From a virus (Duplodnaviria > Caudoviricetes), in IMG/VR virus record IMGVR_UViG_3300029309_000059, positions 1 to 53,689 of that record: 53,689 nucleotides of DNA; one strand, written 5' to 3'. The position numbers were made by a program, and so were the translations under genes. Below the pieces are notes generated by a model. It made no database searches, was not told the DNA's origin, and saw nothing but the letters and a program-made list of their open reading frames with translations. Of this stretch, positions 39,084 to 43,906 are shown in pieces; the first letter of the stretch is position 1; every line of letters starts with the position of its first letter.

Positions 39084-41201
39084 TCACATCTTATAACGCC
39101 TAAAAAACTTCTTGTCTATAAAGTTAGACTCTACCTTTTTAGCCCTAACCTTCTGAGCAGCAAGCAGTGCCAAACCTGAACTTATCGTTAAATCAAACTT
39201 AGTTCTGTCTGTTATTTTAAATCCTATCCAGTCCTCTAGCGTCCTGTTGAAATACATGTTGCCCATATTGCCTGTTTCGTAATGTATACCAACGTGATCA
39301 TGTATGTAAGCCTCTATCGCTTGAGCATGAGATTGTATGACATCTTGAGAGTTTGACGGTATGCCTTTTGTCTTTGTCTTTATAGTAGAGTTTGTAGACA
39401 TGAGGTGCTTGGGTCTGTCCATTAGATAACCATCATAACCTCTTGATTCAAAGTATCTTGCAATACCGTACTTATTGTTTTCAATTAAGATGGGATACCC
39501 GTAAAATACAGCAGCCATCAAAACATCCTCGTAAAATATTTTAGCCAAAGGAGGTCTTGAAGCATACTCGACTACAAACATATTCGATGGATGCTCCATG
39601 TGAAACTTATTGTACATATGCAAGGCACCCTTTGAGCCCCGACCATCGACGGTGGCATCTAAATCATAAGAGTCCACCCCACCAACCCCTATATCAGGAT
39701 TAGGTGCAATACGTTTGCCTTTATCAAAGAGTTTCTTGTTTCTAAATTCTTCGGGAGGCATCCATGAAACATGGAATCTACCGTTTGGATCAGGCTTAAA
39801 AAAAACTTCAGTATCCTTCTCCCCATTCTTCCAGTGAAAGTTACCTACTACAACGGGGTTGGGGAACAGGTCTTCATTGTATTGCGTCTGCTCATAGATC
39901 TTACCTATATTAAATAAGCTACCATCTATACTATCTCGAAAAGCTTCATCCTCTGTAAACGGAAACTGTCTAGTAATCTCATTTAATTCAGAAGCATCGT
40001 GTTTGAAACTATTCCTTTCATTTTTCAGGTATGTCTTTGATCCTTGATTAATGCTATCACCATCAATACCAAGAACAGGATTATTAGGATCTTCAGTGAT
40101 TGCAAATCCATGATTATCAAAAAACCCCTCCAAAGAGTCATAAGCAGGTATAAATAAACGATACAGACCGCTTCTAGTTCTTCCGTTTGCGTTTCTATCT
40201 GTAGGATCAGAATCGGACCAAAGGTCTTTGTATTCTTTACCACCTTTGTCCATAGGGTTAACAGTGCTGCCAACCATAGCCTTGCCTACAATCTTTCTAC
40301 CAACTATAAGACATGTTCTCTGTATCCTCCAAGCGTCTCTTATATCAGTAGGTTTCTCCCACTTTCCAGCCTCATCAAGATACAATATGTGCAGCTTCTC
40401 TCCGTCGTATGCGTTGTTGGTGGTATTCTTCCAGTTAATTACCGTATTAAGAGCCTCTCCCGTCTGCGTAGTCTTATTCTTCTTCGTGATTCTCTTACTC
40501 GGCTCGCGAAAAGCCAACTCCATGCGTGGGTTAGTGGTACCATCTTGAATAGGTTTAAAGAAGAAGGGGTAGTGCCTAAACATATAGACGACCTTCTTCA
40601 TGAATATATTTTCTTGGGCATCCTTTCCAGTCTTTGACTGGATGCCAAGGAGTTTATCCTTAACCTGGGTAGCCTCATCTAGTAGCACAGAGGAGCAGAT
40701 ATTTGTATATCCGCTACGTCTACACTTCGTGTATAGTTGACCAATGCATCTTGGGTCAGCTTCACACGCTGCCAAATGTATGAAAATATTTCTTTGAAAC
40801 TCTAAAAAATCTGGATACCCGATATCCATTCGGGTCCACTGAAGCATCATGTAGTGCCTGCCCGTAATATATGTAGGGACACCGTTATTATAAAACCAAA
40901 AACCTTCACGCCTACGGCGAAACTCTTCTTCGATATACGGAGAAAACTTTTGTCTAAACTCCCTTGGCATCTCCCCCCACTCATCCATAGACTTAATCCT
41001 AGACAACTCCTGTGGCATAGAAACCCTCTTCCACAGCTGCATGTCGTTTGGACTTCCATATCCATAAATTTTTTCTTTGGGAGGCTGAGCGGGAAGTATA
41101 ATGACCAGCCCACCAAGTTGAATACTTTCACCTTTCGTACCGTTGGTGCAAATTGAGATAGCAGGCTCATCATATTCTTTTATCTGTACAAGCGTAGACA
41201 T
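39084..41201 (-). CDS. terL: terminase large subunit
   Basis: Walker A KCRRSGYT, Walker B LYLDEAGK, RNase H-like GGVDSYD and FDLTISSG. Start moved to ATG 41201 because the longer frame overlaps the tRNA. Confidence 0.9.
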   Translation of the reverse strand: MSTLVQIKEYDEPAISICTNGTKGESIQLGGLVIILPAQPPKEKIYGYGSPNDMQLWKRVSMPQELSRIKSMDEWGEMPREFRQKFSPYIEEEFRRRREGFWFYNNGVPTYITGRHYMMLQWTRMDIGYPDFLEFQRNIFIHLAACEADPRCIGQLYTKCRRSGYTNICSSVLLDEATQVKDKLLGIQSKTGKDAQENIFMKKVVYMFRHYPFFFKPIQDGTTNPRMELAFREPSKRITKKNKTTQTGEALNTVINWKNTTNNAYDGEKLHILYLDEAGKWEKPTDIRDAWRIQRTCLIVGRKIVGKAMVGSTVNPMDKGGKEYKDLWSDSDPTDRNANGRTRSGLYRLFIPAYDSLEGFFDNHGFAITEDPNNPVLGIDGDSINQGSKTYLKNERNSFKHDASELNEITRQFPFTEDEAFRDSIDGSLFNIGKIYEQTQYNEDLFPNPVVVGNFHWKNGEKDTEVFFKPDPNGRFHVSWMPPEEFRNKKLFDKGKRIAPNPDIGVGGVDSYDLDATVDGRGSKGALHMYNKFHMEHPSNMFVVEYASRPPLAKIFYEDVLMAAVFYGYPILIENNKYGIARYFESRGYDGYLMDRPKHLMSTNSTIKTKTKGIPSNSQDVIQSHAQAIEAYIHDHVGIHYETGNMGNMYFNRTLEDWIGFKITDRTKFDLTISSGLALLAAQKVRAKKVESNFIDKKFFRRYKM

Positions 41202-41213
41202 AATTAAATTTAG

Positions 41214-41287
41214 TGCATCTGCAGGGACTCGAACCCCAAACCTGCACATTAGAAGTGTGCTGCTCTATCCAGTTGAGCTACAGATGC
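41214..41287 (-). tRNA. tRNA-Arg (anticodon UCU)
   Basis: GCATCTG-TA-GCTC AACTGGATA GAGC-A-GCACA CTTCTAA TGTGC-AGGTT-TGGGG TTCGAGT CCCTG-CAGATGC-A; full cloverleaf, CCA not encoded. Confidence 0.92.
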
Positions 41288-41293
41288 GATGTA

Positions 41294-41449
41294 TTAATAC
41301 CCGCAGTCTTTGTCTCCATGAGGTCCCATAGGAAAATCGGGACCCTGTTGCTTGTGCTTTTGATATCTCTTGTTGTGTGCAGGAGATGTATATGGACTAC
41401 AGCTAGCCCCTAAAAAAGAAATTAAAAGTAAAATTGAAATGATTCTCAT
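41294..41449 (-). CDS. 51-aa lipoprotein (not in ORF track)
   Basis: MRIISILLLISFLGASCSPY...DCGY; lipobox GASC; ATGA overlap with the upstream gene. Confidence 0.65.
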   Translation of the reverse strand: MRIISILLLISFLGASCSPYTSPAHNKRYQKHKQQGPDFPMGPHGDKDCGY

Positions 41450-42033
41450 CTATTTAAATTAGATCTAATAGCTCTTAAAAACAAATCTTTTTGCCTGTCG
41501 TCAAAATTACCTTGAGACATTGCACTAGCTAAAAGTCTAAGATTAGTATTGCTTTGGTCTCTTGGAATACTAATTAATGATTGCAATATATCATCAAAAT
41601 CTCCTCGAAAATCTAAACCCTCCGCCTCTGGAGACGTTACTGCCGATCTAACAATAGCTTCAAATTCAATAGGATTTTCAATCATATACTGAAGCGGGTT
41701 AAATCCTTCAGCATCTTTAAAAGCATCTGTATCCATTCTATTAGTTATACCTCTAATAGCTCTTCTAGTTTGCCTGTCTTGAACCCTAGGATTAAATCCT
41801 AAAAGATTTCTTAGTGGTCCAAACTGCTCAGAGTGAATCATCTCGTGTTCTAGAACAGAATCGTCTGCCCCAGGGAACATAACAACCTCGCCTGTATCTG
41901 GATTAAAAAAACCAGCAGGCATAGAGTCCCGTTCAGTCAACATCCTTAAAAGATCCTCTGTTCTAGCATCTCTAACTTGCGTCCTACCTCTTCTTCTACG
42001 AGCTCTTGCTTCTTTTCCAATAATAGGTCTCAT
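41446..42033 (-). CDS. zincin-like metallopeptidase-domain protein
   Basis: VLEHEMIHSEQ (HExxH) and downstream Y...PIEFEA; Arg-rich N-terminus. Confidence 0.65.
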   Translation of the reverse strand: MRPIIGKEARARRRRGRTQVRDARTEDLLRMLTERDSMPAGFFNPDTGEVVMFPGADDSVLEHEMIHSEQFGPLRNLLGFNPRVQDRQTRRAIRGITNRMDTDAFKDAEGFNPLQYMIENPIEFEAIVRSAVTSPEAEGLDFRGDFDDILQSLISIPRDQSNTNLRLLASAMSQGNFDDRQKDLFLRAIRSNLNR

Positions 42034-42257
42034 CGACTTCTTCTTCTTCTAGGTCTATTGTTAGCCCTGTTTATAGATTGAGGTTGTTGCTTAGTTGCAT
42101 CAGAAATACCCATATGGGCTTCATCGAGACCGTCGCCATTGCCATATGTGCCTTTGCGTCTGTTGATACGATTGAGTGCAGCCCTGTATCTTTTAGCCTT
42201 ACCGCCCTTACCGTATTTGGCATATTCTTTTTTGTAGTCTCTTTTCTTGACTCTCAT
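42030..42257 (-). CDS. small basic protein (degenerate HNH-like)
   Basis: True start MRVKKRDYKKEY at 42257 with -7 element at 42262-42269; GDGLDEAH...SINRANN. Confidence 0.6.
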   Translation of the reverse strand: MRVKKRDYKKEYAKYGKGGKAKRYRAALNRINRRKGTYGNGDGLDEAHMGISDATKQQPQSINRANNRPRRRRSR

Positions 42258-42275
42258 GATACAAATATAAGAAAG

Positions 42276-42352
42276 TCCGCGAGGTGGGACTTGAACCCAC
42301 ATGTCACCAGTTACCCTTTCTACAAGGTATAAGCTTGAGGGGATACTCGCGA
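42276..42352 (-). ncRNA. atypical tRNA-like RNA
   Basis: Acceptor TCGCGAG/CTCGCGG+A; perfect T arm GTGGG-TTCAAGT-CCCAC; CAAG-CTTATAC-CTTG anticodon-like arm; no canonical D arm. Confidence 0.7.
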
Positions 42353-42709
42353 TTAAGAATTTCTTCTTTGATGTGTCTTTTTTCTGTGACAATTGGCACA
42401 TCGAACATCACACTTACGTATCTCTGCTTTGATTGAATTTATAGAGAATGGTCTATGAACCATATCTGCTATGTTCTTCACCTTGACACCACATACGTGA
42501 TCAAAATCAAGTACAACGGGGTTTAATTCCCCGCAATCTACACACCCCAGCATTTTCTTTACTCTATTAACAAAGCTTCTATTCCACTTTCTTTGTGCAG
42601 ACTTAGACTTTTTAGCTTTTTGTTTATAGTAGTCCTTGTTTTTAGAGTAATGTTTTTTTTGATATGCCTTGTTATAAGCTCTACGTGATTCAAGGTCTTT
42701 TATAGGCAT
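42353..42709 (-). CDS. HNH endonuclease
   Basis: GCVDCG...LDFDH...EIRKCDVRCANCHR. Confidence 0.85.
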   Translation of the reverse strand: MPIKDLESRRAYNKAYQKKHYSKNKDYYKQKAKKSKSAQRKWNRSFVNRVKKMLGCVDCGELNPVVLDFDHVCGVKVKNIADMVHRPFSINSIKAEIRKCDVRCANCHRKKTHQRRNS

Positions 42710-42852
42710 CAGTCCTCAGTATCATCAATATCGGACTCTTGCCAAAATTTATAATTATTCCTACTGTATTGCCAAACTATCTCTTTCCAGTCATTTAGAG
42801 AATCTTTCAGCGAAACCTCCGCTGTAGTCTTTTGCTTCTTTGATTGATCCAT
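42709..42852 (-). CDS. possible 47-aa overlapping ORF
   Basis: MDQSKKQ...DWKEIVWQYSRNNYKFWQESDIDDTED; its stop overlaps the HNH ATG (TGATG). Confidence 0.35.
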   Translation of the reverse strand: MDQSKKQKTTAEVSLKDSLNDWKEIVWQYSRNNYKFWQESDIDDTED

Positions 42853-43081
42853 TTGTCGTAAGGTCTTTGATCATCTGTTCTAACCGTTGTCTTTCAACGA
42901 TAAGTTCTTTGCAGTCTGTGGCAGTCTGTTTGATAGACTGTAGTTCAGCTTTCCTTGCGCTTCCATTGATCTCTGGGTCAACAGGTTTCTTGATCTCGTC
43001 AATCATATTGTTTATAGCAATCTCCATTGACGACATCAAACGCTTAGCAGCTTCTATAGTTGTAAACTTCTTACCCGACAA
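42791..43081 (-). CDS. putative terminase small subunit
   Basis: 96-aa helical protein ending GGFAERFSK, upstream of terL; assignment is positional. Confidence 0.45.
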   Translation of the reverse strand: MSGKKFTTIEAAKRLMSSMEIAINNMIDEIKKPVDPEINGSARKAELQSIKQTATDCKELIVERQRLEQMIKDLTTNGSIKEAKDYSGGFAERFSK

Positions 43082-43322
43082 AACTCATAAAAATAGGTGT
43101 TTTCTCTCCAACATAAGATCCAACAATATTAAAATCTGCATGCTCTACAGCATCTTCGTAGTCCATACCCTCCTCTACAAGTATCTCTATTATTCTATCT
43201 ATATCGTACACAGCAACTACGTTCGCACCGTATGTGCACCCAACAAGTGCGTCATCAAATCCATCAGCAGTAAGGCATTCTTCTTCTGCGAGCACCTCCA
43301 TCAAGTCTTCTTTGTCAATCAT
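43071..43322 (-). CDS. acidic hypothetical protein
   Basis: ADGFDDALVG...AVYD...EDAVEH..FNIVGSYVGEKTPIF pattern seen in small phage proteins. Confidence 0.7.
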   Translation of the reverse strand: MIDKEDLMEVLAEEECLTADGFDDALVGCTYGANVVAVYDIDRIIEILVEEGMDYEDAVEHADFNIVGSYVGEKTPIFMSFVG

Positions 43323-43906
43323 TTTTCTACGTATAAAAGATCTTCGGTTCTAGTTCTATAATATTCCTTGCCATCTATCTTAATACGATAGTCTCGATTT
43401 TGCTTGAAACCAACAACATCCCCAGCTTTCAATCCAAGATCTTCAACCCAAGGAGCCGTAAAAGCGATACGACCCTTTGTTGGTAAGCTCTTTTTAAGTT
43501 CGATAACTTCGATAACATCAGATTTTGTTTTTAATTCATCTTGAACTACAGGCTCAAGAAGAGCCCAACCAGCAAGAGGATGTATGTGTCCACTTTTTGA
43601 ACTCTTATATCCAATGGCTTGATTGTTTATAGTGTGGTTAGGATCGTATCTAACCAGATAATGGTTTTCATGTCCAGTTAATGCTTGGCCCTCATTAAGC
43701 ACAACGAGATGATGAAAATATAAGGTGTCTCCAGACTCTACTCCTGTGTTGTGTTTAAGAGGTGCAGATACTACTGGCCCCTCAGTTACTCTATGTTCAA
43801 ACTCATTAAAGCTAGTATTTACATAAAGCTCAAGACCACCTTCGGTAGTCATAGTGTCGTTAAGCTGTTTTTCTAGCTCTACAACAAACAGATCAAGTGT
43901 TTTCAT
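43319..43906 (-). CDS. GroES-like co-chaperonin (two tandem GroES-like domains)
   Basis: TEGGLEL...GPVVSAP..GVESGDTLYFHH, then KGRIAF...GLKAGDVVGF...IDGKEYY. Confidence 0.65.
   Translation of the reverse strand: MKTLDLFVVELEKQLNDTMTTEGGLELYVNTSFNEFEHRVTEGPVVSAPLKHNTGVESGDTLYFHHLVVLNEGQALTGHENHYLVRYDPNHTINNQAIGYKSSKSGHIHPLAGWALLEPVVQDELKTKSDVIEVIELKKSLPTKGRIAFTAPWVEDLGLKAGDVVGFKQNRDYRIKIDGKEYYRTRTEDLLYVEK

Follow-up and report, generated by a model that had tools for sequence, protein, structure and literature searches.

A phage tRNA-Ile(UAU)-like RNA with a rewired and apparently undescribed core architecture, and its family among bacteriophages

The stretch of DNA analysed here, called the window throughout, is the IMG/VR virus record IMGVR_UViG_3300029309_000059, a Caudoviricetes genome of 53,689 nucleotides (nt) that is estimated to be 87% complete and has a G+C content of 41.5%. 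The large terminase of this phage is 41-48% identical to the terminases of Flavobacterium, Cellulophaga, Maribacter and Tenacibaculum phages and, because of this resemblance, its host is probably a marine member of the Flavobacteriia. The subject of this work is an element of 77 nt on the minus strand (42276-42352), which has the acceptor stem, the T arm and the anticodon loop of a transfer RNA (tRNA) for isoleucine with anticodon UAU, joined in an unusual order. A gene for an HNH endonuclease, an optional neighbour outside the RNA, lies on the same strand (42353-42709, stop codon included) and its stop codon abuts the element, which starts on the next base. A canonical tRNA-Arg(UCU) gene is also found nearby (41213-41287, minus strand); it is called by ARAGORN, scores 66.2 bits with Rfam and is the sole tRNA reported by the finders in the phage record.

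Read 5' to 3' along the minus strand, the element consists of the acceptor 5' strand, U8 A9 U10, CCC, C, a hairpin, AGAAA, GGG, U, AACUGGUGACAU, the T arm, the acceptor 3' strand and a final A. The acceptor stem is made of UCGCGAG (nt 1-7, 42346-42352) and CUCGCGG (nt 70-76, 42277-42283), seven pairs of which the first is a U.G wobble, and double changes occur at 7/7 pairs in relatives; the discriminator A77 closes the element at 42276 and CCA is not encoded. The T arm, GUGGG-UUCAAGU-CCCAC (nt 53-69, 42284-42300), is intact, with a loop that reads UUCRANN in 119/119 members of the family described below. The connector U8 A9 U10 (42343-42345), whose U8 and A9 are likewise invariant in 119/119 members, leads to the strand CCC (nt 11-13, 42340-42342), and this runs directly into the anticodon arm. 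The latter comprises C14, comparable to canonical position 26, and nt 15-31 (together 42322-42339), and forms the hairpin CAAG-CUUAUAC-CUUG, with an extra U.U pair at the base of a stem of four base pairs (bp), all four of which covary; its loop has the canonical seven nt, with C32, U33, the anticodon UAU (42329-42331) and A37. A linker, AGAAA (nt 32-36, 42317-42321), is bulged between the anticodon stem and the strand GGG (nt 37-39; with U40, 42313-42316), and it reads WGAAA in most members and AGAA or AGUA in a subgroup of 76-nt Arg members.

The D hairpin expected between nt 9 and nt 26 is absent from the element. Instead, a covarying 3-bp stem, CCC/GGG (nt 11-13 with nt 37-39), encloses the anticodon hairpin and is followed by the D-loop-like AACUGGU; the single strand as a whole is AACUGGUGACA then U (nt 41-52, 42301-42312), in which AA, GG and the closing AU vary little or not at all, and 22 nt in all separate the anticodon stem from the T stem. 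The alignment shows the hexamer AACUGG in the nearby tRNA-Arg(UCU) as well, within its D loop. Most of this anatomy had been described by the original prediction: the 77-nt sequence with its intact acceptor stem and T arm reads exactly as given there, the UAU hairpin placed about 8 nt past the acceptor stem begins 8 nt past it, and both the AACTGG shared with the tRNA-Arg D loop and the abutting HNH stop codon are borne out by the alignment and by the coordinates of the open reading frame (ORF). Of the proposed pairing of TATCCC with GGGTA, covariation upholds CCC/GGG only, and U10 faces U40 in the element; an A at position 10 restores an A-U pair in 6/119 members.

Relatives were collected by blastn and by two pattern scans of IMG/VR, which gave at least 117 and at least 118 stretches, and all family counts derived from these scans are counts among the matches listed. 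The pattern of the first scan covered the 3' half only, with no structure required, and it yielded at least 64 unique elements of 77-78 nt, 63 of which have an anticodon loop of the form CU-UAU/GAU-A-N, the remaining one (L095) being a 3' half only. In the second scan the commonest Ile T stem was excluded and the base after GG was left free, and at least 78 unique sequences were obtained. When all fetched loci were searched with a structural parser, 124 unique elements were obtained, from which five mis-parsed canonical type II tRNAs were dropped, leaving at least 119 members. Two alignments were built, A3 with the 63 sequences from the first scan and A4 with 119 sequences, together with a covariance model, R1, derived from A3. 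With R1, over the loci of the first scan, the pattern-derived copies score 84.8-103.9 bits, divergent members 39-56 bits and canonical tRNAs at most 28.5 bits, while second-scan and divergent members reach down to about 39 bits; a divergent member with anticodon ACG (L097:634-709) has the same wiring. The members were found in marine Flavobacteriia-like phages, in crAss-like phages, in phages of Streptomyces and Microbacterium, and in contigs of metagenome-assembled genomes (MAGs) resembling jumbo phages.

The fold is carried by covariation. In an alignment of five sequences the acceptor and anticodon stems already covary fully, and CCC/GGG is compensated as ACC/GGU and CUC/GAG. In A3, 97.4% of the cells are paired, against 74.8% in shuffled alignments (0/500 as high) and 40-48% when the partner strand is slid, and double changes are seen at 13/19 pairs. 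All sequences of A3 form the stem 11-13/37-39 (100% paired), with CG 53, AU 7, UA 2 and UG 1 at its first pair, CG 40 and UA 23 at its second and CG 63 at its third, and the column pairs with the highest mutual information are exactly the helix pairs, including nt 11 and 12 with nt 39 and 38. In A4 all four helices covary (four of the five pairs in the case of the T stem), each of the three pairs of the enclosing stem occurs in several types (CG, AU, UA and GC over the three), and RNAalifold returns the same structure unaided. An unbiased check was provided by the 163 unique pattern matches: the enclosing stem has 3/3 pairs in 146 of them, 2/3 in seven and none in one, which is a canonical tRNA; the other nine, lacking a six-of-seven acceptor match, are five Kehishuvirus-type copies, two family copies (L059, L130) and two half or non-family sequences. 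Only 2/3 pairs of this stem are formed in an Arg subgroup of the form UAU-GCC-G ... AGAA-AGC-UAA (L125, L142, L154, L179, L214, L215, L221), with C opposite A, where the register or the length of the linker may differ.

Standard tools do not recover this RNA. On the window, ARAGORN does not call the element and reports tRNA-Arg(UCU) only, and in its standard and mitochondrial modes it finds 0/64 of the elements of the first scan; Rfam at gathering thresholds likewise returns only the canonical tRNA-Arg. The Rfam tRNA model (RF00005) scores 25.7 bits on the element against a gathering score of 29, and its alignment places 4 nt against 15 model positions of the D arm, so that the D arm is deleted and 18 nt are inserted in the variable region. 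YrlA and ribozyme families were also considered and rejected, because a search with Rfam at E values up to 10 over window positions 41000-43000 shows only tRNA and a chance match to a long non-coding RNA (16.2 bits), the sole non-tRNA family on the element. Folding of the single sequence gives a minimum free energy (MFE) of -22.7 kcal/mol with z = -0.98, and 37/200 shuffled sequences fold at least as well; single-sequence folding is uninformative, and even the cloverleaf of the neighbouring canonical tRNA-Arg is missed by MFE. Of the checks named by the original prediction, ARAGORN and Rfam scans (YrlA included) and covariation among homologs gave no cloverleaf call, no Rfam family and clear covariation. 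Its central claim, that a tRNA-like RNA has been rearranged in topology with the elements of the D/T elbow retained, is supported by the lack of a cloverleaf, by scores below the Rfam cut-off, by the covariation of four helices and by the D-loop-like AAYUGG-N.

How the core may be wired can be proposed by comparison with canonical numbering. The U-CCC strand, leading into C(26) and the anticodon stem, appears to take the place of canonical 22-25, with CCC in the place of 23-25, and GGG-U appears to take the place of canonical 10-13, so that AAYUGG-N..A would read as A14 R15 Y16 Y17 G18 G19 N20 .. A21. On this basis nt 41-52 of the element are proposed to correspond to A14 A15 Y16 U17 G18 G19 U20 ... 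A21 U48, the invariant U before the T stem being the likely equivalent of U48, the partner of A15. Since the 5' strand seems to act as 22-25 and the strand after the linker as 10-13 plus the D loop, the order of the molecule in canonical numbers would be 1-9 / 22-48 / 10-21 / 49-76, with the blocks [10-21] and [22-48] swapped. The D loop of the neighbouring canonical tRNA-Arg, AACUGGAUA, offers a concrete example of the likeness to the AAYUGG region that follows the hairpin. In such a molecule the D-like stem would still stack on the anticodon stem, and the contacts U8-A14, A15-U48, G18-psi55 and G19-C56 would all still be able to form, so that the L shape could be kept.

The strongest support for this mapping of the D loop comes from the anticodons, since the base after GG tracks the anticodon class and AAYUGG-N in this respect behaves like a real D loop. 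Among the 119 members, 82 belong to an Ile/CAU class (UAU 68, GAU 12, CAU 2) and 37 are of Arg type (UCU 18, ACG 13, CCU 5, UCG 1); among members whose base after GG was not fixed by the search, this base is A in 37/37 of Arg type and U in 29/29 of the Ile/CAU class, and the discriminator is A in 82/82 Ile/CAU members. According to the part of the source available, A20 is the main determinant for the Escherichia coli arginyl-tRNA synthetase (ArgRS) and unique among tRNA families, whereas the identity of tRNA-Ile depends on the discriminator, the anticodon and determinants in the D loop that include D20 (PMC9976931). Other anticodon classes were looked for by scans of the 77-nt layout, which fits 78/119 members: with G or U at position 35 two random-sequence matches were obtained, and with A or C at both 35 and 36 none. 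The seven anticodons found are joined by single substitutions (GAU/CAU/UAU - UCU - CCU/UCG - ACG), a network that would fit one origin followed by shifts of the anticodon.

The family is also present in cultured phages, where it is mostly unannotated or labelled wrongly. By blastn, matches of 72 nt with 79% identity occur in about 40 Streptomyces phages, and two crAss-like phages are matched as well; in Kehishuvirus 'tikkala' the element occupies the unannotated gap between tRNA-Trp and tRNA-Met within an array of 21 tRNAs. All but one of the Streptomyces records listed leave the site of the element unannotated, the exception being phage EGole (MK494112.1, 75265-75341; L001:1503-1579), where the boundaries are exact and a gene with an Ile(GAU) loop is labelled tRNA-Leu(UUA). 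Arg-type members are found in Microbacterium phage A3Wally (ACG, unannotated) and in Streptomyces phage Mildred21 (UCG), the latter gene (MF155946.1, 91367-91442; L249:704-779) being labelled tRNA-Phe(gaa), and in both mislabelled genes the anticodon was read 2 nt too far 3'. Standard finders miss the rewired family, and standard annotation misses or mislabels such genes. In one scan of the genomes of 185,579 species, 10 stretches were matched, all of them in MAG contigs and 0 in isolate genomes; 7/10 of these loci score at least 49 bits with R1, two (L239, L244) only 31-33 bits and one (L242) gives no hit. One of the contigs, at 362,763 nt, is equal in length to an IMG/VR virus contig in which a member was found. 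On present evidence, these RNAs are confined to phages.

Some loci carry incomplete or multiple copies. Two copies comprise the 3' half only (L095:3942-4013 and L171 near position 294), with the 3' strand of the D-like stem, the D-loop-like element, the T arm and the 3' strand of the acceptor stem, preceded by unrelated sequence; no matching 5' half, as a split gene would need, was found nearby, L171 being close to a contig end, and these copies may be remnants of recombination. In a tandem at L017:872-1125 (minus strand), seen likewise in L024, L061 and L086, a canonical tRNA-Ile(GAU) is followed 11 nt downstream by a rewired Ile(GAU) and then by a divergent rewired Ile(UAU), in which a 10-nt linker replaces AGAAA and which scores 54.8 bits with R1; such a tandem may record duplication and divergence of the scaffold. 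Three rewired genes lie close together on some contigs (L229:630-991, minus strand, and L165:1178-1539), and the first of these stretches holds Arg(ACG), Arg(CCU) and Arg(UCU), every Arg decoder in it being rewired.

Taken as a whole, the data are best explained if the element works as an elongator tRNA-Ile(UAU) whose core is rewired by a block swap, a reading to which we give a probability of about 60%. RNase P, the CCA-adding enzyme and EF-Tu read the acceptor/T half of a tRNA, and in the element both this half and the anticodon stem-loop are canonical. In the proposed pathway, host RNase P and 3' processing enzymes would cut the RNA from a co-directional transcript, after which it would receive CCA, be charged by the host isoleucyl-tRNA synthetase (IleRS) and read AUA, while the canonical tRNA-Arg(UCU) of the phage would serve AGA; the same scaffold would have diversified among phages, taking on the anticodons GAU and CAU and four of Arg type. 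No RNA sequencing run containing the stretch was found, and two metatranscriptome runs from the same sample have next to none of its sequence words, a result that carries no information on expression. The codon use of the phage is in line with these roles: AUA makes up 335/922 Ile codons (36%) and AGA 395/757 Arg codons (52%), these being its two most skewed codon choices and matching its two tRNA-type genes, and the rewired element is its only AUA-matching tRNA-like gene. In the first scan, the locus holds other tRNAs in 119/123 occurrences, and in 40 cases a tRNA on the same strand is no more than 20 nt away; a canonical Ile(UAU) is found together with a GAU element in 11 occurrences, and a canonical Ile(GAU) together with a UAU element in two. 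Among the three functions that the original prediction had offered, namely a decoy for anticodon nucleases, a non-canonical AUA decoder and a processing signal, the AUA decoder fits best, because identity bases for aminoacyl-tRNA synthetases (aaRSs) are kept, the setting is that of tRNA arrays and codon use matches.

Several observations weigh against this reading. Same-anticodon redundancy occurs in nine occurrences, with a GAU element beside a canonical GAU in five and a UAU element beside a canonical UAU in four, and in EGole, which has one rewired gene in a tRNA region of 38 kb, tRNA-Ile genes that read AUA and AUC are annotated as well. The discriminator is U in 13/37 Arg members, against the A/G named for arginine identity in the available part of PMC9976931. 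Although the base after GG follows the anticodon class without exception, support for the statistical independence of this link is weak, because the tree of the 77-nt sequences holds seven Ile/Arg changes and only one independent Ile/Arg contrast on a supported branch. The Kehishuvirus copies carry two U.U mismatches in the acceptor stem. The 100% figure for the D-like stem in the set of 119 is uninformative, since it holds by construction of a parser that demanded these pairings, A3 and the check on the 163 hits being the unbiased measures. The consensus fold of the element, at -19.2 kcal/mol, is less stable than its MFE structure at -22.7 kcal/mol, and single-sequence thermodynamics are hence not in its favour. 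Finally, we infer the three-dimensional equivalences of the rewired core rather than observe them.

Part of the same evidence could be read in another way, in which the RNA is a tRNA mimic working outside translation, either as a decoy or sponge that draws off a host factor able to recognise tRNA-Ile or tRNA-Arg (for instance an anticodon nuclease, a toxin that modifies tRNAs or a sensor used in defence) or as a regulatory tRNA-like RNA. Phage tRNAs can counter tRNA-directed defences; in addition, the core is non-canonical and tRNA finders fail on it, some phages have a canonical tRNA-Ile for the same codons alongside, and the restriction to two amino-acid classes could mean two specific host targets. 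Yet a decoy for an anticodon nuclease needs no aaRS identity bases outside the anticodon, and these are kept (37/37, 29/29 and 82/82, as given above); redundant tRNA copies, moreover, are common in the same phages, EGole having duplicate genes for Pro, Asp, Asn, Tyr, Met and Leu, and in the window phage, where over a third of the Ile codons are AUA, the element has no AUA-matching companion. A role as a mimic is accordingly considered rather unlikely, although it is the alternative that survives best.

Less probable still is a role in cis for the neighbouring genes, as a processing signal that punctuates the mRNAs of the HNH gene and of downstream genes or as a homing target of the HNH endonuclease, with the hairpin having no decoding role. 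Homing endonucleases are known from phage tRNA regions, as in the case of SegB of phage T4, and the HNH ORF, which matches phrog_2255 (E = 9.8e-26) and for which, as for its neighbours, no match in Pfam was found, directly abuts the element in the window. The same layout recurs in unrelated phages, where the end of an HNH gene and the rewired Arg gene that follows it are 1-6 nt apart (L249:268-702 in Streptomyces phage Mildred21 and L250:1132-1494 in Microbacterium phage A3Wally). Among 63 syntenic marine loci, window included, an HNH gene abuts the 5' end of the element in 27, which can be counted in favour of a cis element, and lies 364 nt upstream of it in one, but it is downstream in five and absent in 30, whereas the element is present between the same flanking genes in 63/63. 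The HNH proteins of these loci are 56-75% identical to that of the window, the one at L079 being near-identical. Furthermore, crAss-like phages have the element inside pure tRNA arrays, and a processing signal alone would not keep the anticodon class or its link with the base after GG, while a tRNA gene could also be a homing target. The RNA thus does not depend on the HNH gene, which is an optional and mobile neighbour, and the spread of the element by the HNH gene, as the original prediction had suggested, is not needed to explain these loci; conversely, the conserved RNA gene may serve the HNH gene as a landmark.

The last alternative, a decayed or rearranged pseudo-tRNA without function, could appeal to the score below the Rfam cut-off, to the missing ARAGORN call and to the unremarkable z-score of the fold, but it is contradicted by covariation in the helices, with compensation in every helix, as well as by invariant loop bases and by conservation across unrelated phage groups, and the 3'-half remnants that do occur (L095, L171) differ in appearance and have much lower scores (with R1, L095 reaches 41.4 bits, far below full copies), all of which makes it extremely improbable.

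Further observations concern the surroundings of the element. A GroES-like co-chaperonin of 195 amino acids is encoded at window positions 43319-43906 (minus strand; phrog_13932, E = 1.1e-48) and, in all of the marine group, its gene is kept upstream of the element. The longest ORF of the large terminase (phrog_6681; 39084-41249, minus strand) overlaps the tRNA-Arg gene at 41213-41287, and its true start is therefore probably farther downstream, the PHROG match starting at residue 29. On the antisense (plus) strand of this same tRNA-Arg gene, the Rfam family Plastid-ycf2 scores 30.9 bits against a cut-off of 65.7, a chance or antisense-tRNA artefact.

In comparison with known systems, the rewired RNA shares with canonical class I tRNA-Ile and tRNA-Arg (RF00005) the 7-bp acceptor stem, the 5-bp T stem with its UUCRA loop, the 7-nt anticodon loop, U33 and a purine at 37. 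It also resembles them in U8 and A9, in a D-loop sequence that contains GG, in the identity bases for aaRSs, in its length of 75-78 nt and in its occurrence within tRNA arrays. What sets it apart is that nt 9 and the anticodon arm are not separated by a D hairpin, and that the D-loop sequence joins the T arm directly. Mitochondrial tRNAs (mt-tRNAs) lacking the D arm, such as mammalian mt-tRNA-Ser(AGY) and those of nematodes, similarly have no D hairpin and a short connector between acceptor and anticodon arms and, in the part of the source available, they are described as losing the D loop, some being flexible or boomerang-shaped (PMC7609411). The rewired family, by contrast, keeps a D-like stem and the conserved AAYUGG at a new place, and it belongs to phages of bacteria, not to organelles.

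Allo-tRNAs, together with (8/4) tRNA-Ser and tRNA-His, were also mined from metagenomes, some of them from phage tRNA clusters, and UAU is among the predominant allo-tRNA anticodons according to the accessible part of the source (PMC5389517); however, their 12-bp acceptor/T branch is split 8/4 or 9/3 and their V arms are long, whereas in the rewired family the branch is a canonical 7/5 and it is the strand order of the core that appears to be changed. Type II tRNAs (Leu, Ser, Tyr) resemble the rewired family in the long stretch from anticodon arm to T arm, which Rfam aligns as an insertion in the variable region, but in the rewired family this stretch forms no hairpin of its own and pairs with the 5' connector, and Ile and Arg are class I isotypes. 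Tentative parallels are offered by structured RNAs of bacteria and phages that are tRNA-like or adjacent to tRNAs, namely the YrlA module and the theta ribozymes, similar to those of hepatitis delta virus, found by phage tRNAs. Compared with YrlA, the element has an anticodon loop, lacks a Ro-binding stem and gives no match to an Rfam family of this kind at E values up to 10; EGole also encodes a Ro-like protein. In the part of the theta-ribozyme preprint available (10.1101/2023.06.13.544163), no such RNA is described.

The nearest known kinds thus differ, because the mt-tRNAs lose the D loop, the allo-tRNAs change the acceptor/T branch and the arm of type II tRNAs pairs with itself. Rfam 15 has no family for the rewired RNA, and no description of this architecture was found in a full-text literature search whose coverage excludes most subscription journals and supplementary files, including the figures on phage tRNA clusters of PMC5389517. 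Within the literature covered, the element therefore appears to be an undescribed tRNA with a new core topology.

A more general proposal, which we consider somewhat better than an even chance on the strength of the sequences compared, is that phages carry a natural topological isomer of tRNA, a second and phage-specific wiring of the core in which blocks 10-21 and 22-48 are exchanged, which would be L-shaped, charged by host IleRS or ArgRS and active in decoding, and which would have had one origin followed by single-base steps of the anticodon; it may have been kept because enzymes or defences of the host that recognise the D arm of canonical tRNAs would be evaded. As standard annotation misses or mislabels the rewired genes, phage tRNA repertoires and analyses of codon supply would be biased for AUA and for AGA/AGG/CGN codons. 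If the rewired RNAs are indeed charged and decoding, the strand order in the core of a tRNA would be evolvable in nature, bacterial translation included, which would bear on the recognition of tRNA shape by aaRSs, RNase P, EF-Tu and the ribosome, on the design of orthogonal tRNAs and on the conflict between phages and their hosts over tRNAs.

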